NCBI GenBank assembly: GCA_963677925.2
Contig: CAXXYH010000004.1
Coordinates: forward strand, 1,600,001 to 1,664,000
DNA length: 64,000 bases
Origin: Spirochaetia bacterium
GTDB taxonomy: Bacteria; Spirochaetota; Spirochaetia; UBA9216
Direction: 5' to 3'
The notes beneath the pieces were generated by a model. That model searched no databases, was not told where the DNA came from, and saw nothing but the letters and a program-made list of their open reading frames with translations. This document shows, one piece after another, positions 2,167-52,493 of the stretch. The first letter of the stretch is position 1, and the number at the start of each line of letters is the position of its first letter. Made by a program: the position numbers and the translations under genes.

Positions 2167-3459
2167 ATGAAGGACTTGAAAAGTCTGTATAAGCAGAAAC
2201 TGACGGATGCCGCCTCTGCGGTATCCGTTTCGGTGAAATCAGGGGACCAGGTTGTGCTGGGGCACTGTGCCGGCGTGCCGGTTGAACTCACTGCGGCTAT
2301 GACTGCGCAGGCTGAAAGACTGAATGACGTAAGGGTCTTCCACATGGTGCCCCTGCATGACTGCTCCTACTGCGCTCCTGAATACGAGGGAACCTTCCGG
2401 CATACGACAATATTTGCCGGAGGACCTACCAGGGGCTCGGTAAACGAGGGACGGGCGGACTTCATTCCCTGCTATTTCTCAGAGCTTCCCAGACGATTTA
2501 GAGAGAAGACGATCGACTGCGATGTCGCGATGATTATGGTATCGCCGCCTGATGAGCACGGTTTCATGAGCTACGGAATATCGGTTGATTACACGCTGCA
2601 GGCTGCGCAGTCCGCCCGTGTGGTTGTAGCAGAAGTTAACAGCAGGATGCCGCGGACCTTCGGTTCGTTCATTCATGTTTCGGAGATCGACTATCTTATT
2701 GAAACCGACTATGATCCCATTGAAATACCGCTCCCTAAAATTACCGAGGTTGAACAGAAGATAGGCAGCTACGTTGCAGAGCTTGTGCCAGACGGTGCGA
2801 ACCTTCAGCTGGGCATAGGCGCAATTCCCGATGCAGCCCTGCATTTTCTCACAGAGAAAAAAGATCTGGGAATCCACTCCGAGATGTTCTCCGACGGTGT
2901 TGTCGATCTTTATGAAAAGGGTGTTGTAACAAACCGCTTCAACAATCTCAATCCGGGGAAATTTGTGGCAACCTTTCTTATGGGCACAAAACGCCTTTAC
3001 AGCTTTGCCCACAACAACCCTGCCGTCATGATGAAACCGGTGGATTACACCAATAATGTACTTGTTGCCGGCCATTTGAAAAAACTGATTTCCATAAATT
3101 CTGCGATCGAGGTAGACCTTTACGGACAGGTATGTGCCGACATGATAGGGCCTAAGCAGTTTTCCGCGGTAGGCGGCCAGGTGGACTTTGTCCGGGCAGC
3201 CATGCATTCAGAAGGCGGAAAGTCGATAATTGCCTTCCCTTCAACTGGAAAGGGCGGACAGATCTCAAGGATTACTCCCTTATTGAAAGCAGGAGCCTGC
3301 GTGACTACCTCGCGTCATGATGTTGATTACATTGTAACAGAATATGGTATTGCAGCGCTCAAAGGCAAATCGAACTCACAGCGAGCACAGGAGCTTATTA
3401 ACATCGCCCATCCCGATTTCAGAGATGAGCTGAGCGCTGCACTGAAGAGGAATGACTGA
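2167..3459 (+). CDS. cat2: 4-hydroxybutyrate CoA-transferase (acetyl-CoA hydrolase/transferase family)
   Basis: LQLGIGAIPDA, LGIHSEMFSDG, GGQVDF, VDYIVTEYG; directly follows abfD. Confidence 0.85.
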   Translation: MKDLKSLYKQKLTDAASAVSVSVKSGDQVVLGHCAGVPVELTAAMTAQAERLNDVRVFHMVPLHDCSYCAPEYEGTFRHTTIFAGGPTRGSVNEGRADFIPCYFSELPRRFREKTIDCDVAMIMVSPPDEHGFMSYGISVDYTLQAAQSARVVVAEVNSRMPRTFGSFIHVSEIDYLIETDYDPIEIPLPKITEVEQKIGSYVAELVPDGANLQLGIGAIPDAALHFLTEKKDLGIHSEMFSDGVVDLYEKGVVTNRFNNLNPGKFVATFLMGTKRLYSFAHNNPAVMMKPVDYTNNVLVAGHLKKLISINSAIEVDLYGQVCADMIGPKQFSAVGGQVDFVRAAMHSEGGKSIIAFPSTGKGGQISRITPLLKAGACVTTSRHDVDYIVTEYGIAALKGKSNSQRAQELINIAHPDFRDELSAALKRND

Positions 3460-45211: not shown

Positions 45212-45230
45212 ACACAATCAATAATTTAAT

Positions 45231-45262
45231 GAAGCAGACCTTAAAAGGGTCTGCTTCTTTTT
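45231..45262 (+). terminator. Intra-operon stem-loop after the SBP gene
   Basis: GAAGCAGACC/GGTCTGCTTC stem followed by a T-tract. Confidence 0.65.
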
Positions 45263-45276
45263 CTAAGGAGTTTCAG

Positions 45277-46788
45277 TTGGGTGAATCTATTTTAGAACTC
45301 AGAAACATCACAAAATATTTTCCCGGAATCAAAGCGCTGGACGGTGTTAATCTTAATATACGTCCCGGAGAGGTTCATGCACTTATCGGAGAGAACGGTG
45401 CAGGCAAATCCACCCTTGTAAAGATTCTGACAGGAGTCTATTCTCCGACATCCGGAGATATTATCTACAAAGGCGAACCCGCTGCTTTTAAAAATGCAAT
45501 TGAAGCTCAGGAAGCAGGCATTACCGCCATTCATCAGGAAGCCTCAATGTTTTCAGAACTTTCCGTTACAGAAAACATCTATATGGGGCATCATTTACGG
45601 GGCAGGGGCATCGGAAAGATAAACTGGTCCGCAATGAAGAAGAATACCAAGGCCCTTCTGGATCGGATGGAGCTTAATATAAATCCTGACACACTCGTAA
45701 AGAATCTGGGAACTGCTCAGAGGCATATGGTTGAAATAGCAAAGGCGCTGTCAATCGATGCTGAAGTCGTTATCATGGATGAACCAACTTCAGCACTGAC
45801 CCTCAGAGAAGTTGAAGACCTTTACAAGATTGTCAGGCAGCTTAAGGCCGACGGGAAGGCAATAATTTTTATTTCCCACAAGTTTGAAGAGATTTTTGAT
45901 GTCTGTGATTATTTTACTGTTCTGCGGGACGGGCGCTATATCGGTGAAGGTAAGGTTTCGGAGCACACAGTAGATGATATTGTAAAGATGATGGTCGGTC
46001 GAAGCCTTGATCAGATGTTTCCGAAGAAGGATGTTGAACCCGGTGAAGAGGTTCTCAAGGTTGACGGGCTCTCAAATGAGGGTGTTTTCAAAGATATTTC
46101 GTTCAGCCTCAGGAAGGGAGAAATCCTCGGCTTTTTCGGTCTTGTCGGCGCAGGCCGGACCGAAGTAATGCGGGCCATTTTCGGTATCGATAAAAAGACA
46201 GGCGGAGAAATTACCCTGTTCGGTCAGAAATTCAATCCCGGTTCAGCCGGTGACGCAATGAAGAAAAAAATAGCCTATGTACCGGAAGACCGTCAGACTC
46301 AGGGTGTTATCCTTGAGATGAGCATAGGCAAGAATATAACACTTCCCCAGATAGATATGATAAGCACTCTCGGCTACCTCAAATCTTCGACAGAAAAGCA
46401 GATAACACAGGAATACGGCAGCATGATGGAAATAAAGGCAGCCGGATGGAATGTGGATGCTGATACTCTCTCCGGAGGAAACCAGCAGAAGGTTGTTCTT
46501 GCCAAATGGCTTGCAACAAAACCGCAGATTCTTATCCTCGATGAACCTACAAAGGGTATTGATGTGGCCACGAAAGCTGCCGTGCATAAATTTGTGTCCG
46601 AGCTGGCAGCTGAGGGACTGGCGGTAATCATGGTTTCATCGGAACTTCCGGAGGTCCTCGGTATGTCGGACAGGATTATCGTCATGCATGAGGGTGAAAT
46701 GACCGCCGAGTTTAAACGTGATGAAGCTGATTCCGACAACATAATCAAGGCCGCTACCGGTCATATTGAAGCCGGAGGAGAGAAATGA
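45277..46788 (+). CDS. Rhamnose ABC ATPase
   Basis: GENGAGKST, LSGGNQQK, DEPTKGIDV; TTG start after AAGGAG. Confidence 0.92.
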   Translation: MGESILELRNITKYFPGIKALDGVNLNIRPGEVHALIGENGAGKSTLVKILTGVYSPTSGDIIYKGEPAAFKNAIEAQEAGITAIHQEASMFSELSVTENIYMGHHLRGRGIGKINWSAMKKNTKALLDRMELNINPDTLVKNLGTAQRHMVEIAKALSIDAEVVIMDEPTSALTLREVEDLYKIVRQLKADGKAIIFISHKFEEIFDVCDYFTVLRDGRYIGEGKVSEHTVDDIVKMMVGRSLDQMFPKKDVEPGEEVLKVDGLSNEGVFKDISFSLRKGEILGFFGLVGAGRTEVMRAIFGIDKKTGGEITLFGQKFNPGSAGDAMKKKIAYVPEDRQTQGVILEMSIGKNITLPQIDMISTLGYLKSSTEKQITQEYGSMMEIKAAGWNVDADTLSGGNQQKVVLAKWLATKPQILILDEPTKGIDVATKAAVHKFVSELAAEGLAVIMVSSELPEVLGMSDRIIVMHEGEMTAEFKRDEADSDNIIKAATGHIEAGGEK

Positions 46789-47768
46789 CAAAGATTAAAC
46801 AGCTGGCAGCCAGGCGTGAAGCCACTCTGATCGTTCTGATTGTGCTGCTCACTATTATCGTAACAGCCAGGGCCCCAGGATTTATCAAGGGCGAGAATAT
46901 AAACAGGATTATCAATGATACCTCGATCCTGATCATGGTTGCCATAGGTCAGTTTTTTGTAATACTTACAGGCGGTATCGATCTTTCAGTAGGGTCAATA
47001 ATTGCCTTTGCAGGTATGGCAGCTTCCATGCTCAACCAGTATTACCCGGCCGTCCCGGTTTTTGTCGTACTGCTTTTCGGAACAGTAATAGGACTGGGAC
47101 TCGGCGCAATCAACGGAGCAGTAGTTACCTTCGGCAAGGTTCCGCCAATTATTGCAACCCTGGGCACAATGAGTATATACCGCGGATTCACTTTTGTTCT
47201 CAGCCGCGGCCAGTGGGTTACAGCCCATGAGATGTCTGAAAACTACATGGCTCTTCCTCACGGAAGCTTTCTGGGTATTACCAACCTGATATGGTCCGCA
47301 ATTATTGTAGTCGCCATTACATATTACTTCAGCAGATACTCACGCTCAGGCCGCGAAATATATGCAATCGGCGGAAACAAGACCGCTGCAAAGTTTGTCG
47401 GTGTAAGCGTGAAAAAGGTGAACATGATCATTTTCTCCATCAGCGGCCTTCTCTGCGGGCTTGCCGGGGTAATGTGGACGTCAAGATATGCCGCGGCTGT
47501 GAATGAAACTGCAAGCGGTTTTGAGCTTCAGACTGTAGCCGCCTGTGTTCTCGGCGGTGTAAATATTGCCGGAGGCGCCGGCGCCATTCCCGGAGTTGTT
47601 CTCGGTGCTCTTTTCCTGGGAATTATCAACAATGCGCTTCCGGTAGTTAACCTGTCGCCTTTCTTTCAGATGTTGATACAGGGTGTTGTTGTTCTTGCTG
47701 CAATGCTTATCAATACTTTAATGGACCAGAAGCAGGATAAGGCAGCATTGAAAAGGAGAGCAAGCTGA
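46785..47768 (+). CDS. Rhamnose ABC permease 1
   Basis: [30 protein letters not shown]. Confidence 0.9.
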   Translation: MTKIKQLAARREATLIVLIVLLTIIVTARAPGFIKGENINRIINDTSILIMVAIGQFFVILTGGIDLSVGSIIAFAGMAASMLNQYYPAVPVFVVLLFGTVIGLGLGAINGAVVTFGKVPPIIATLGTMSIYRGFTFVLSRGQWVTAHEMSENYMALPHGSFLGITNLIWSAIIVVAITYYFSRYSRSGREIYAIGGNKTAAKFVGVSVKKVNMIIFSISGLLCGLAGVMWTSRYAAAVNETASGFELQTVAACVLGGVNIAGGAGAIPGVVLGALFLGIINNALPVVNLSPFFQMLIQGVVVLAAMLINTLMDQKQDKAALKRRAS

Positions 47769-48808
47769 TGAGTGACAGAAACAGCCTTGTAGACGGCTCA
47801 AGATTAATTAACGAAAACAGCCTTAAAAGCCGTCTCGGCAATCTTATAGTACAGTGGGAATTTATACTGGTTATAATGTTTATAGCTGAAGTTATCCTCT
47901 TCAGCAGTATAACCCCATATTTTCTTGATTATTTCAACCTGATGAATGCCACATTCACTTTTATGGAAAAAGCAATTCTGGCGCTTCCGATGATCTTTGT
48001 AATTATGTCAGGTGATATTGATATTTCGGTTGCAGCCATCATAGCCCTGTGTTCTTTTGCAATGGGCTTCGGAGCCGACGCAGGGATGAGTGCCGGAACA
48101 ATAACTGTTATCGGTCTTCTTGTAGGTGCTCTTTCCGGAGCCTTCAACGGCTTTTTCATCACAAGATTCGGAATGCCGGCGATTGCGGTAACCCTTGCAA
48201 CATCCTCGCTTTTCAGGGGGATCTCGCAGGCAATACTGGAAGACAAAGCTTACACTGTATACCCCGAATCCTTCGCATACTTCGGACAGGGCTATGTAGG
48301 CGACAGTCTGGTCCCCTTTGAGCTGCTTCTATTTATAATTCTCGCCGCAGTAATGGGTTATGTTCTTCATAAGACTACCTACGGTAGAAAGCTGTACGCG
48401 ATTGGAAACTCAAGTTCAGCCGCCAGGTTTTCAGGCATAAAGGTAAACCGGATTCGTTTTATCAATTTTACACTCAACGGACTTTTTGCAGGAATTTCTG
48501 CTGTTCTTCTTACTTCGAGAATAGGCAGTACAAGGCCAAATATCGCCACCGGTTTTGAGCTGGAGGCAATTGCCCTTGTAGTTCTGGGCGGTGTTGCAAT
48601 TACCGGAGGAAAGGGAAATATCTTCGGTGTTATAGTGGCCACCTTCTTTATCGGATACCTGAAGTTCGGTATGGGGCTGCTGAATCTTTCGGCCAAGGTG
48701 ATGATAATTACAACCGGTCTCCTGCTGATTATTGCTGTACTTCTTCCCGGAGTTCTTGATGCAATTAAGAGCAGAAGGAAGCTTCTGCGACAGCAGAAGG
48801 AGGACTGA
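47768..48808 (+). CDS. Rhamnose ABC permease 2
   Basis: DIDISVA, YAIGN, FELEAIA.VVLGGV. Confidence 0.9.
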
Positions 48809-48809
48809 T

Positions 48810-49127
48810 TTGACTGAAAGGCTTGCCTTTAAAATGAAACTGAAGCCGGGGATGGCGGAGGAGTATAAGGCTCGGCATGATGCAATCTGGCCGGAACTGG
48901 TCGGGCTGCTCAAGGATGCGGGAGTCTCTGATTATTCTATATTCCTGGATGAGGAGACTAGTACGCTCTTTGCTGTCCAGAAATCCTCCGGTGAAGGCGG
49001 CAGTCAGGACCTTGGTGCAAATCCTGTTGTTCACCGATGGTGGGAATATATGGCCGATATTATGGATACAAATCCGGACAATTCACCGGTAAGTATTCCG
49101 CTTAAGGAAGTTTTTTATCTGGAGTAG
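48810..49127 (+). CDS. rhaM: L-rhamnose mutarotase
   Basis: [35 protein letters not shown]; TTG start after AGGAGG. Confidence 0.93.
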
Positions 49128-49167
49128 CCGCCGGATGCATGCTGCGGCAGTCCCCGATTTAATGGCG

Positions 49168-49202
49168 CTCAATACGGCTGTATTTAACTCAGCCGTATTG
49201 AG
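49168..49202. terminator. Hairpin between the convergent rhaM and PqqD genes
   Basis: Perfect 13-bp stem CTCAATACGGCTG/CAGCCGTATTGAG. Confidence 0.6.
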
Positions 49203-49217
49203 TGGAGCCCCATTGGT

Positions 49218-49499
49218 TTAGTAGTCGATTAGTTTTTTGGATCTGCAGTCTTCAAGAAACAGCTTAAGATCGTTTACAAGTACTTCTTCTTCAATACCGT
49301 AATCTTTCATGAGCCCGGAAATGATTCCATCAGTATCCAGACCTTTAGTCAGCATCTTCCATATCTCCATGCCTGTTTCCCTGAATGTGTGAATTTCATC
49401 ACTGCCGGCAATTACAACTACTACTTCATCACCCAGGTCTCTTTCGCTCAGGTTGGGGGCTATATTCACTTTTCGGGGAAGTATATTTTCAGTGTTCAT
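49218..49499 (-). CDS. PqqD-family protein (RiPP recognition element)
   Basis: 93 aa; three strands (ERDLGDEVVVV...IHTF), then TGMEIWKML...LMKDY...DLKLFL..KLI helices; AGGAG SD. Confidence 0.85.
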   Translation of the reverse strand: MNTENILPRKVNIAPNLSERDLGDEVVVVIAGSDEIHTFRETGMEIWKMLTKGLDTDGIISGLMKDYGIEEEVLVNDLKLFLEDCRSKKLIDY

Positions 49500-49520
49500 T
49501 TTTAATCTCCTGTTATCAGC

Positions 49521-50363
49521 TCAGTCTGAAATCCGTTCAATCACTTTCCAGAATCCGGGATCCTTTCTGAAGCTCAGCTCGTATACCGGAACCCTTCGGC
49601 ATAATTCAGAGGCAATATCTATCTGCTTAAGGTAATCCTCGCTCTGCATAAAATCACCAACACCTACCGGCGGAATCAGCTGGGATGCAATTAGCTTGAT
49701 CGGGGTCGCACCGCTTACCGGAACAATGCCGTGCTCAGCTGCTTTTTTCAGAATGAAAATACCTGCAAGCGGGGCACTGCCGGACTCCTTGATTCTATAT
49801 AATCCATTGAAGGGGGTTGAAACAAGTTCGGGTTCAGAGTTGCTGAGGTCGGCGATGCATATTTCGTCATTTATAATTTTATAATCGGAAGAAAGGGCCG
49901 CTGCGGTTGATTTGCCGGCCTCAGATGCTCCGACAAACAGATAGCCCCGGCTGTCCTTTATAACGCCGCTGGAATGTACAAGCGGCATTGAGCCGTACGA
50001 TTCTCCGCAGGCAGTCACATAGGCCTGATAGATAATCTGCTCAAACACTCTTGAGGCGGAAGTTTCAACAAGTACAGGGTGGATCAGAAGTTCTGCAGTT
50101 TTTCTTTCGGGAGTGTACTTGCCCGACATCATGCCGCCTTCGATAGTGAATCCGTCACCATCCCGGCGTTTTGAATGAAACAGAGAATCGGGGACAATAT
50201 CAATTTCAGTACTGCGGTCCATCAGCCTTATTTTCAGCCGGACATCAGGAGCAGCATCGCTGTTTTGTCCCATAAAGTACTCAAGCATGTTATCTCTGAG
50301 CCATCGATTTCTGAAATCAAGACAGACTGTTTTTCCGCCTGCCTTAAGGTTGAATTTAAACAC
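49521..50363 (-). CDS. HPr kinase-related P-loop protein
   Basis: VHSSGV...YLFVGASEAGKST...INDE...STPFNG; GTG start. Confidence 0.75.
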   Translation of the reverse strand: MFKFNLKAGGKTVCLDFRNRWLRDNMLEYFMGQNSDAAPDVRLKIRLMDRSTEIDIVPDSLFHSKRRDGDGFTIEGGMMSGKYTPERKTAELLIHPVLVETSASRVFEQIIYQAYVTACGESYGSMPLVHSSGVIKDSRGYLFVGASEAGKSTAAALSSDYKIINDEICIADLSNSEPELVSTPFNGLYRIKESGSAPLAGIFILKKAAEHGIVPVSGATPIKLIASQLIPPVGVGDFMQSEDYLKQIDIASELCRRVPVYELSFRKDPGFWKVIERISD

Positions 50364-50811
50364 CTTTTATTATCCTTTTTAAAACAGCTTTGAAATCCCT
50401 CATTACGGTCAGGATTTGTGTTTTTACAAACCGGCGCCGGGCCTGTCCTGCTGTCCATTTCTTATCATCATATTCCGATATCCCGTCCTGACCGCTTCGT
50501 CTGCCGGATGTCACCCTTCCGATAATCCGGCTTACTGAAATCCACGAACCGTCAGTATTGCCGTCGCCCTTCTGGTATATCCTTCCTGAAAATATATTGA
50601 TAAAAAGTATACGGTGAAAGTAAATAATTCCGTTCTCATAAAAAACTGCAATCATTCCGGGTTTAAGTTCTGATTCAGCTTCTGTCCGGTCAAGAATCAG
50701 AATCTCAACCTCATCACCGGGCAGAAAACCGGGAGCCATGCTGCCGGAAAGTACCGGAACCCAGGCGCGCTCGCCGGGTTTCATTGAAAGAAGATTTACA
50801 GCTTCCGCCAT
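50356..50811 (-). CDS. S24/S26-family peptidase without a TM anchor
   Basis: VLSGSMAP..GD, FHRI, KGDGN, IIGRV. Confidence 0.8.
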   Translation of the reverse strand: MAEAVNLLSMKPGERAWVPVLSGSMAPGFLPGDEVEILILDRTEAESELKPGMIAVFYENGIIYFHRILFINIFSGRIYQKGDGNTDGSWISVSRIIGRVTSGRRSGQDGISEYDDKKWTAGQARRRFVKTQILTVMRDFKAVLKRIIKGV

Positions 50812-52004
50812 CAGATTGAGCCTCTGAAAAAGCGTTTTACCGGCGGTTTGAAGATCCGGTGTATGATGAAGATGCTTTTCAGTTTGTTTTTTAACTGTCC
50901 ACCGTATACGAAGGGCAGGAGTATGCTGTACAGAACCGTGTATGTCCGCTTTGATTCAGTCATTGAGTGAAGACAGCCGTGCTGGATTAGTCTGAAAATA
51001 CGTTCGCTTTTTCTAAGCCTGGTTTTAAGTGTCATGATAACTTTTTCCGGTACTGTGCCTGGAAAGAAGTACTCAAGCATTTCAAGTGAAAAGAGTGAAA
51101 AGCCTGCAGTGACGGTTATCTCTGCAGTTGAAAGAAAGTCTTCCCAGTCAAAACCGGGCTGTGAACACAGATGTTTCATATCAAGGGTATACCGGAGTGT
51201 AAACTTATATTTTACAACCGAACGCCTGAAAGCGTTATGCATACAGATAAGCCAGAGGTTGTCGGATGGTGTCAGTATTCTGCAGCCTAAATCTTCAGAG
51301 TAAACAGATCGTTCAAGAAGCTTGTCGCTGTGCAGCCATAGTTTATCAAGGTTGAAACTGTAGACCCTGCTCCTTTCGAAGGGGTGGGTATGAATTTCAG
51401 TCAGCAGATCGTCTTTTTCCGAGAGGTATTCGAACTGGTTAGTCCAGCTCTTAAGTGAGTCTATGTTTCCGTCCAGGTCTTCGCTTTTCAGATAAAGTTT
51501 TCTCGCATCACCTTTGTAGGTGAATCCGTTTTTAAGCATAATCCGATGGACTTCTGCTATGTCATTCTCTTTTATCAGGAGGTCCAGATCGTTCACATCC
51601 CTCGGGATCTCGGAGCTGCCAAGGCTGAAACCTTTTAAGAGACAGAGTTCAATACCGGCCTTTTCAAGAAGTGATTTTATAAGTTCAAGTTTTTCAAAAT
51701 ATATCGTTTTTTCCAGAGCGGCAAGTTTATCAATCCGCTGCAGAGTGGAGACTGTTCCTTCAGGCAGTCTGCTTTCCGGCCGAGGATGGGGCTTATCTCT
51801 CTGTTCATCCAATATCAGGTATGCAAAACTCCTAAGCAGTTTATGAGTTTGAAGAAGTCTGAAAATAAAATTCCAGTCAAGGCCGGCGGTATTTATTCCG
51901 GAGACGGCGGCCGGGTATTTTCGGTCTGTAAAGAAACTGAGTATGAACTTCTCTTCCTCTGACAGTCTTGAATTTAATTTCATTTTACAGAAAGACTTTA
52001 TCAC
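50811..52004 (-). CDS. Nucleotidyltransferase family protein (NTP_transf_5-like)
   Basis: LDW...H, CLLKG, RDVNDLDLLI, EIH, H...LDM, DW. Confidence 0.8.
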   Translation of the reverse strand: MIKSFCKMKLNSRLSEEEKFILSFFTDRKYPAAVSGINTAGLDWNFIFRLLQTHKLLRSFAYLILDEQRDKPHPRPESRLPEGTVSTLQRIDKLAALEKTIYFEKLELIKSLLEKAGIELCLLKGFSLGSSEIPRDVNDLDLLIKENDIAEVHRIMLKNGFTYKGDARKLYLKSEDLDGNIDSLKSWTNQFEYLSEKDDLLTEIHTHPFERSRVYSFNLDKLWLHSDKLLERSVYSEDLGCRILTPSDNLWLICMHNAFRRSVVKYKFTLRYTLDMKHLCSQPGFDWEDFLSTAEITVTAGFSLFSLEMLEYFFPGTVPEKVIMTLKTRLRKSERIFRLIQHGCLHSMTESKRTYTVLYSILLPFVYGGQLKNKLKSIFIIHRIFKPPVKRFFRGSI

Positions 52005-52055
52005 ATTTATGCATTATGAAAAACTGCAGATTCAGCTAATCACCAACTCCAGTCT

Positions 52056-52262
52056 TCAGCCTGATGTTGACGCTCCGGAGGTGTCGTCAGGTTCGGAGGT
52101 ATCTGAATCTGTGCTATCGCTGTCGGTGTCAGTATCCGGATAATCCTGTTCCGTGTCTGTATCGGTCGTATCTGTTCCTGCACCGGGATCGGGATTACAT
52201 GCTGAAAGGGAAAAAGCAGTTATAAGTATTAATATTAGTAATACGGCTGAGATTTTTTTCAT
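52056..52262 (-). CDS. Small acidic Ser/Thr/Asp-rich lipoprotein (68 aa), candidate modified substrate
   Basis: MKKISAVLLILILITAFSLSA-C lipoprotein signal plus a 46-aa low-complexity tail; start moved to ATG 52262. Confidence 0.7.
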   Translation of the reverse strand: MKKISAVLLILILITAFSLSACNPDPGAGTDTTDTDTEQDYPDTDTDSDSTDSDTSEPDDTSGASTSG

Positions 52263-52493
52263 ATGATTCCAAATATATACCAGAAAAACAATCCCTACAA
52301 TAAACAACCGTCTCTTCTTGACTATACCGGCCGGAGTAATTAAATTGAGATAATCAGGTCGACTGGTTCAGCGGCCATGATGTGCAGAATTTAAATCATA
52401 TCTTATCAATTGGTTCAGACTTGATCTGGGGAGGACAGGTACTAATGAACAAATTCAGTAATCACCAAATTTTAAATTTACACATAAAGCATA

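Follow-up and report, generated by a model that had tools for sequence, protein, structure and literature searches.

Introduction

A pathway for peptides that are made on ribosomes and modified after translation (RiPPs), named LPP for linear polyphosphorylated peptide and first described in May 2026, has been reported from Bacillota (Popov et al., Nat Commun 2026, PMC13381572). Its components are a signal peptidase I of archaeal type (SpI), LppS, a discrete RiPP recognition element (RRE), LppB, an HprK-like kinase, LppK, an NTP transferase, LppN, and an MsbA-like exporter, LppD. Here we analyse a stretch of 64,000 nucleotides (nt) of Spirochaetia bacterium DNA (GCA_963677925.2, contig CAXXYH010000004.1, positions 1,600,001-1,664,000 of the forward strand), called the window below. 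The minus-strand genes at 49218-52004 of this window probably make up an LPP-type RiPP maturation cassette, whose substrate would be a 69-residue precursor peptide encoded elsewhere in the genome, at G000:C4:841314-841523.

The LPP paper assigns to the precursor, LppA, the motif YxxPxVLxHQxIxFETxxS. LppK is reported there to add as many as four phosphates to Ser3 of the core and to refuse the S3T and S3Y variants; LppS, with S29, H68 and D93 as catalytic residues, depends on LppB for removal of the leader. LPPs are also stated there to be restricted to Bacillota, and the terms Spirochaet, Fibrobacter, Krumholzibacteri and Treponema have no occurrence in the main text or the text supplements searched. 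Around its 126 SpI genes, Supplementary Data 2 counts 126 matches to TIGR02228, 140 to NTP_transf_5, 67 to TIGR04249 and 65 to TIGR04352 (PMC13381572).

Tailoring of lasso peptides by a kinase together with a nucleotidyltransferase is described in PMC8498205. For pseudomycoidin, PMC6993621 reports that the hexose on the phosphate depends on PsmN; PMC10368454 describes BsfK as an RRE-assisted enzyme acting on core Ser3, with YxxPxL at positions −17 to −12. The SynChlorMet system (TIGR04249-TIGR04251) is known from database models, and we found no paper on it: TIGR04249, TIGR04250, TIGR04251 and PF27840 had zero occurrences in the literature searched, in which the matches to ScmC and ScmE were unrelated. 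Literature searches for HPr kinase together with radical S-adenosylmethionine (SAM) enzymes, PqqD and precursor peptide, or with RRE-Finder, found nothing relevant among the papers listed. Kinase, nucleotidyltransferase and signal peptidase go unmentioned in the main texts of the RRE-Finder paper (PMC7470986) and of a 2025 paper on RRE structure (PMC12710340).

Results

Four co-oriented genes encode an RRE protein and three putative peptide-modifying enzymes

In the list of open reading frames (ORFs) of the window, five co-oriented minus-strand genes span 49218-52307. Four of them form the cassette: a nucleotidyltransferase gene (50811-52004, 397 amino acids (aa), the ATG at 51983 being a likelier start), a serine peptidase gene (50356-50811, 151 aa), a P-loop kinase gene (49521-50363, 280 aa) and a gene for a stand-alone PqqD-type protein (49218-49499, 93 aa). 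The nucleotidyltransferase stop and peptidase start have base 50811 in common, an overlap of 8 nt (50356-50363) joins the end of the peptidase gene to the start of the kinase gene, and the kinase stop is followed by a 21-nt gap containing GGAG before the PqqD start. The co-orientation of the five genes and the start/stop coupling of the middle three, as read in the original prediction, were confirmed from these ORF coordinates and the sequence.

The nucleotidyltransferase, which resembles LppN and PsmN, matched PF14907 (NTP_transf_5) above the Pfam cut-off (E 5.6e-24). Residues K117-G118, R128, D132-x-D134 and E196-x-H198 are invariant across 13 homologues. Its AlphaFold model (mean predicted local distance difference test, pLDDT, of 79.7) was nearest in Foldseek to MenT1 (1.6e-4), ANT(2'')-Ia (5cfs/4xje), LnuA and FKRP; 5cfs and 4xje are the entries named for PsmN by Zyubko et al. 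(PMC6993621). A PDB sequence search with the nucleotidyltransferase returned nothing.

The 151-aa protein is a predicted leader peptidase, a soluble S26-type serine peptidase of the archaeal/endoplasmic reticulum (SipW/SEC11-like) kind that resembles LppS. It had no match in the Pfam copy searched. Its NCBIfam match, to the archaeal-type signal peptidase I model TIGR02228, scored 8.6e-8 and fell below cut-off; an alignment to human SEC11A (7p2p; E 0.04) covers the SGSM, HR and GD motifs. G23-S24-M25-x-P27, H66-R67 and G82-D83 are invariant across 15 homologues; Ser24, His66 and Asp83 are the catalytic candidates, to be set beside S29, H68 and D93 of LppS. By eye, no signal peptide or membrane segment was seen in the cassette enzymes, the peptidase included. 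Its profile found 138 relatives at E<=1e-3. At locus L017 (7548-8828) an S26-like peptidase and the kinase are fused in one open frame of 426 aa, and in protein P0234 (267 aa) an S26-like domain is fused to PqqD; these fusions support a physical complex of the peptidase, kinase and PqqD components.

The kinase is a probable member of the ScmC family (PF27840) with the fold of phosphoenolpyruvate carboxykinase (PEPCK) and HPr kinase, and it resembles LppK. No match was found in the Pfam copy searched. Among its 42 homologues at E<=1e-3, 41 carried a precomputed PF27840 assignment, the family being named ScmC in the Atlas. NCBIfam gave TIGR04249 (ScmC) at 1.7e-6, with 27.6 bits against a cut-off of 125 bits, and TIGR04352 (HprK-related kinase A) at 0.014, also below cut-off; within a set of 38 kinase relatives the two models were matched by 29 and 16 proteins respectively, all below cut-off. 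H130, G150-K151-x-T153 (the P-loop) and N165-D166-E167 are invariant across homologues. The kinase model (pLDDT 94.6) superposes on PEPCK with a Z score of 14.5 over 234 residues, and HPr kinase/phosphatase appeared lower in Foldseek, at ranks 40 and 45. A PDB sequence search with the kinase profile yielded P-loop matches only.

The PqqD-type protein, an RRE of the lasso B1 type resembling LppB, matched PF05402 in Pfam (E 5e-11). When a profile of 22 homologues was run against the PDB, lasso B1 RREs ranked first (TbiB1, 4e-18; 9x90_B, 8e-13; TfuB1, 6e-11; 9x8z_B, 1.5e-10), and PqqD proper scored 2e-6 only. Of the family searches proposed in the original prediction, those with PF05402 and PF14907 were positive, and those for the S26 peptidase and for HPrK-related models gave the matches to TIGR02228, TIGR04249 and TIGR04352 reported above, all below cut-off.

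The cassette recurs in three phyla

A kinase profile scan of species-representative genomes returned 24 related loci, which fall in Spirochaetota, Krumholzibacteriota and Fibrobacterota (Fibrobacteraceae). Architectures of the window and the 24 loci were scored by component profiles on six-frame translations, within the flanks available. Type A, with nucleotidyltransferase, S26 peptidase, kinase and PqqD and no radical SAM gene in the flanks, was found in the window and at 13 loci. Four loci were of type B, in which a radical SAM/SPASM gene is added to the same four genes, and five of type C, with kinase, PqqD and radical SAM/SPASM only. At two further loci the contig ends just after the kinase.

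PqqD was present in 23 of the 25 loci (the other two being those at a contig edge), the S26-like gene in 20 and PF14907 in 19. The last two travel together: both were found at 19 loci and neither at five, and the S26-like gene stood alone at L012. The neighbourhoods, annotated with Pfam, are otherwise unrelated between loci, and the peptidase-kinase-PqqD order recurs among them, which is more than chance would give. The comparison of neighbourhoods called for in the original prediction therefore identified the four enzymes as a module recurring in three phyla. This module is patchily distributed: 3 of 41 relatives have it, and among 401 genomes sampled from the phylum it is present in 7. We conclude that the gene set is real and conserved.

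Pairs of ABC-2 exporter genes adjoin L004, L005, L014, L017 and L025. An IS110-family transposase gene lies a few kb from a Krumholzibacteria-type cassette (L023:12212-13324). An AsnB-like gene near L017 was considered as a possible lasso cyclase and rejected: its GATase domains are strong (E 1e-42), and it is on the far side of three rml genes.

A leader-bearing peptide family is the probable substrate

Common to five loci is a small converging ORF that follows the radical SAM gene, and these ORFs were the source of a precursor hidden Markov model (HMM). This HMM found the same leader beside 11 of the 24 loci, three of which (L004, L005 and L017) are without radical SAM. In the genome of the window it gave a single match, at C4:841314-841553 (E 1.9e-6). 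The corresponding gene, of 69 residues, lies outside the window, about 808 kb from the cassette (G000:C4:841314-841523; L027:9315-9524, minus strand). Such a distant position is not peculiar to this genome: in four of the five other genomes without an adjacent precursor, one or two copies were found away from the cassette.

Several features speak for a genuine precursor gene. A Shine-Dalgarno sequence, GGAGG, precedes the ATG by 7 nt, and the gene is followed by a terminator, a GC-rich hairpin that carries a T-run. Compared with a genome of the same genus, 17 synonymous and 6 nonsynonymous codon differences were counted in 70. The cassette has no MsbA-like exporter; an ATP-binding cassette (ABC) exporter gene (ABC_membrane+ABC_tran, L027:7314-9191), whose best NCBIfam match is MsbA, instead adjoins the precursor gene directly downstream. 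A gene of the major facilitator superfamily diverges from the precursor gene. The predicted core is free of Cys and rich in Gly, Asn and His.

The leader consensus is YxxPx(9)GVFGxYG, and in a set of 12 precursors Y5, P8, E13, G18, G21 and Y23 occur without exception. No NCBIfam model matched the 11 precursors tested at E<=0.01, and no Pfam model matched the precursor of the window genome, whose N-terminus aligned weakly with the TfuA leader (E 1.1). A search of 1.84 billion representatives extended the family to 314 representative clusters at E<=1e-3, and motifs were counted in the best 150 of these. G[VAIL][FYWL]GxY was present in 147; the other three read GSFGNY or GVFGCGY, or have no Tyr. 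In 146 of the 147, exactly 9 residues separate the proline of YxxP from the first G of the motif. Beyond this point the cores are hypervariable, a rough sort giving 44 with a Cys pair, 45 with aromatic and basic residues, 22 with acidic ends and 36 others. Many representative precursors end in Trp/Arg-rich or ...hxhHME-type tails. The original prediction had proposed phosphorylation of Ser or Thr; as a universal acceptor this is doubtful, 13 of the 147 predicted cores having neither residue after the conserved Tyr.

Co-occurrence of kinase (E<=1e-15) and precursor (E<=1e-4) was scored in one sample of 401 genomes of the phylum. Both were found in the same 7 genomes and neither in the other 394; in the six co-occurring genomes other than that of the window, they lie within 2.5 kb of each other. 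Judged from these sequence comparisons, the recurring substrate is most likely this leader-bearing peptide family, encoded about 808 kb away in the window genome, and the cassette very probably acts on this precursor encoded in trans.

Comparison with described systems

The comparison with LPP was made through family models and published motifs. Both systems have a TIGR02228-like peptidase, a lasso-type RRE, a kinase of the TIGR04249/TIGR04352 type and an NTP_transf_5 protein. In both, the precursor has its YxxP leader at the N-terminus and is hypervariable at the C-terminus, and neither cyclase nor B2 protease belongs to either. The MsbA-like exporter, a component of LPP clusters, has its counterpart here beside the precursor. 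They differ in that LPPs are from Bacillota, whereas the loci described here are from Spirochaetota, Krumholzibacteriota and Fibrobacterota, and in that precursor and exporter are about 808 kb from the enzymes in the window genome. Many relatives of the window cassette, moreover, add a radical SAM/SPASM gene, and matches to the curated models are below cut-off here.

With the paeninodin, pseudomycoidin (PsmK/PsmN) and Bsf systems the system described here shares a lasso-type RRE, a YxxPxL-like leader and an ABC exporter. In Bsf, as proposed here, an HPrK-like kinase acts on the precursor with the help of an RRE (BsfK/BsfB1), and in pseudomycoidin an enzyme of nucleotidyltransferase fold, PsmN, is needed for the hexose on the phosphate. 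Unlike lasso clusters, the window locus has neither a macrolactam synthetase nor a transglutaminase-like B2 protease, and no PF13471 was found in the genome. With an S26-type serine peptidase in the B2 role, the product should be linear.

As for SynChlorMet, an ScmC-type kinase adjoins a PqqD-type protein in both, and at loci of types B and C one radical SAM/SPASM gene is found together with a peptide that contains Cys. In contrast, the window cassette and its genome are without an ScmE/ScmF-like radical SAM protein, the precursor has no Cys, and an S26 peptidase and a PF14907 enzyme are present in the cassette instead.

A maturase in trans, or a lost one?

One alternative is that the cassette does no more than tailoring, in the service of a scaffold enzyme elsewhere in the genome, a radical SAM protein or a lasso cyclase acting in trans. 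Other partners might be encoded in trans as the precursor is, and type B loci do unite all the enzymes. The window genome, 99.6% complete, has one PqqD and one PF14907. Its radical SAM/SPASM proteins include no close relative of the cassette type, the best matches being 25-27% identical over the generic core only, and the precursor core offers no Cys. PF13471 and PF00733 (Asn-synthase) were found in none of the cassette proteins (Pfam, NCBIfam), and in the rest of the genome there was no match to PF13471, the lasso B2-type protease. The single strong PF00733 match is a 662-aa frame at C4:890 kb; its distance is 759 kb to the cassette and 49 kb to the precursor. The genome-wide search for radical SAM or lasso genes that the original prediction had recommended thus disclosed neither a close cassette-type radical SAM/SPASM nor PF13471, and we regard a scaffold enzyme in trans as improbable.

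Still less probable is a decayed SynChlorMet-type radical SAM cassette, whose maturase would have been lost, leaving the remaining genes idle. This idea draws on the probable membership of the kinase in the ScmC family and on the radical SAM/SPASM gene that lies directly after PqqD in 9 of the 24 related loci (confirmed by Pfam in 8 of the 9, L018 resting on the component profile). The original prediction had named, as a sign of decay, homologous cassettes that always carry a radical SAM or cyclase gene; this was not what we found, as the 13 type A loci and the window, from three phyla, have no radical SAM gene in their flanks and all their ORFs are intact. The catalytic residues are invariant in all three enzymes. 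On the kinase tree the nearest relatives of the window, L003, L004 and L005, are all of type A, and the architectures are interleaved, with 10 label changes against a shuffled mean of 10.3, so the cassette of the window is no recent remnant. The cores also follow the architecture. At radical SAM loci, CC was found in 8 of 10 precursors and at least one Cys in all 10, whereas none of 12 precursors at loci without radical SAM had CC. The radical SAM-adjacent precursors, listed for L006, L007, L008, L009, L010, L011, L014, L025, L038 and L042, mostly end in ...NP(L/F)FxxCC(S/G).

Neighbouring genes

The fifth minus-strand gene (52056-52307 from a TTG, 83 aa) likely starts at the ATG at 52262, which gives a small protein with a signal peptide, an L-S-A-C motif and an extremely acidic tail rich in Asp, Thr and Ser, as read from the sequence. 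We take LSAC in the 52056-52262 product to be a lipobox, and hence the protein to be a lipoprotein. It matched no family above cut-off in Pfam or NCBIfam, and a homologue was found in 1 of the 24 related loci, that of a same-genus relative (L003). This lipoprotein is a lineage-specific neighbour outside the recurring module. That it, or some other protein, is what the cassette modifies in place of a leader-bearing peptide is very unlikely: its gene lies on the same strand about 50 nt upstream of the cassette and hydroxyl residues abound in its tail, but a homologue accompanies a single related locus, it has no YxxP leader and was unmatched by the precursor HMM, and it bears an export signal whereas the cassette enzymes have none, so that the role of substrate once suggested for it was not borne out.

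A hairpin (49128-49217; fold energy −34.1 kcal/mol, z −3.2 relative to shuffles) occupies the interval from the PqqD stop to the converging rhaM gene. There is no T-run in it and the terminator scan did not call it; it is likely the end of the operon. Promoter and terminator scans gave sites no more numerous than in shuffled sequence, and Rfam and tRNA scans of the window detected no RNA genes. The cassette is flanked by rhaM (48732-49127) and a sugar ABC transporter (45229-48808) on one side and by CoaX and PdxS/PdxT on the other; annotation of these flanks confirmed that the unit sits between rhamnose and coaX loci unrelated to it. Rhamnose-related genes adjoin several spirochaete type A loci: rmlA/C/D-like genes are directly upstream at L017 (3868-6169), and L005 has an rmlC-like gene (2763-3404). 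Such neighbours could hint at the donor of the nucleotidyltransferase, or be a coincidence. LPP clusters are noted in PMC13381572 as sitting in polysaccharide loci.

Discussion

The genes at 49218-52004 are probably an LPP-type maturation cassette working on the 69-residue precursor encoded in trans. The original prediction of a peptide-maturation set that depends on an RRE and includes neither a cyclase nor a YcaO, lanthipeptide or radical SAM enzyme is supported. So is its view of the S26 protein as leader peptidase and of the kinase and PF14907 protein as a tailoring pair, through the LPP work on the same families (PMC13381572). The system had been called undescribed, which does not hold given that its enzyme families are those of LPP; as far as sequence can tell, it is a divergent, cross-phylum variant of that system.

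Several observations weigh against this assignment. The YxxP leader continues as x(9)GVFGxYG here and as VLxHQxIxFETxxS in LPP, and a Tyr stands here at the register of phospho-Ser3, a residue change (S3Y) that LppK refuses. The peptidase and kinase matches to curated models are all below cut-off, and no named Bacillota protein was found among the best 120 of the 138 relatives in the S26-like profile search. LppN itself had no visible effect in the heterologous expression system, as reported in PMC13381572. With about 808 kb between cassette and precursor, the link between them rests on co-occurrence, and the 7 co-occurring genomes are kin, some of them having contributed to the profiles.

By analogy with the systems above, the PqqD RRE would bind the YxxP of the leader, and the ScmC/HPrK-type kinase, aided by the RRE, would phosphorylate a hydroxyl just past GVFG, either the nearly invariant Tyr or a nearby Ser or Thr. 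The PF14907 enzyme may then add a group to the phosphate, for which the hexose of pseudomycoidin is a precedent. The soluble S26-type Ser/His/Asp peptidase would cut the leader at or beside GVFG-x-Y, and the exporter encoded beside the precursor would secrete a linear, Cys-free, Gly/Asn/His-rich peptide. In this scheme we infer which residue is the acceptor, where the leader is cut, what the nucleotidyltransferase does and that the two loci of this genome are linked. Counting from the Tyr of YxxP, the scissile bond of LPP comes after position 16 and the phospho-Ser is at 19; in the family described here, these two positions are taken by the F of GVFG and by the conserved Tyr, 18 residues past that of YxxP. 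The lasso register, with Y at −17, would place cleavage after GVFG.

As 13 of 147 cores have no Ser or Thr past this Tyr, a universal acceptor, if there is one, would be the Tyr. We therefore put forward, as a tentative proposal that we consider rather less probable than its negation, a Tyr-directed branch of LPP, in which the kinase would phosphorylate the Tyr of GVFGxY and the PF14907 enzyme would build a phosphodiester-linked group on it, so that diderm phyla would make linear Tyr-O-phospho(glyco)peptides. Exchangeable modules would then have a shared handle in the conserved leader, radical SAM/SPASM in some loci and S26 plus nucleotidyltransferase in others.

If the assignment is right, a pathway published as restricted to Bacillota would be carried into three phyla of Gram-negative type. 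It would also bring with it a large new precursor family, 314 representative clusters with a leader of fixed register, that is easily searched. Mining based on clusters can miss such substrates, since hundreds of kb can separate the enzymes from precursor and exporter. A Tyr in the phospho-Ser register, and a single leader on which radical SAM is interchanged with S26 and nucleotidyltransferase, may serve as testable hypotheses on how RiPPs diversify.

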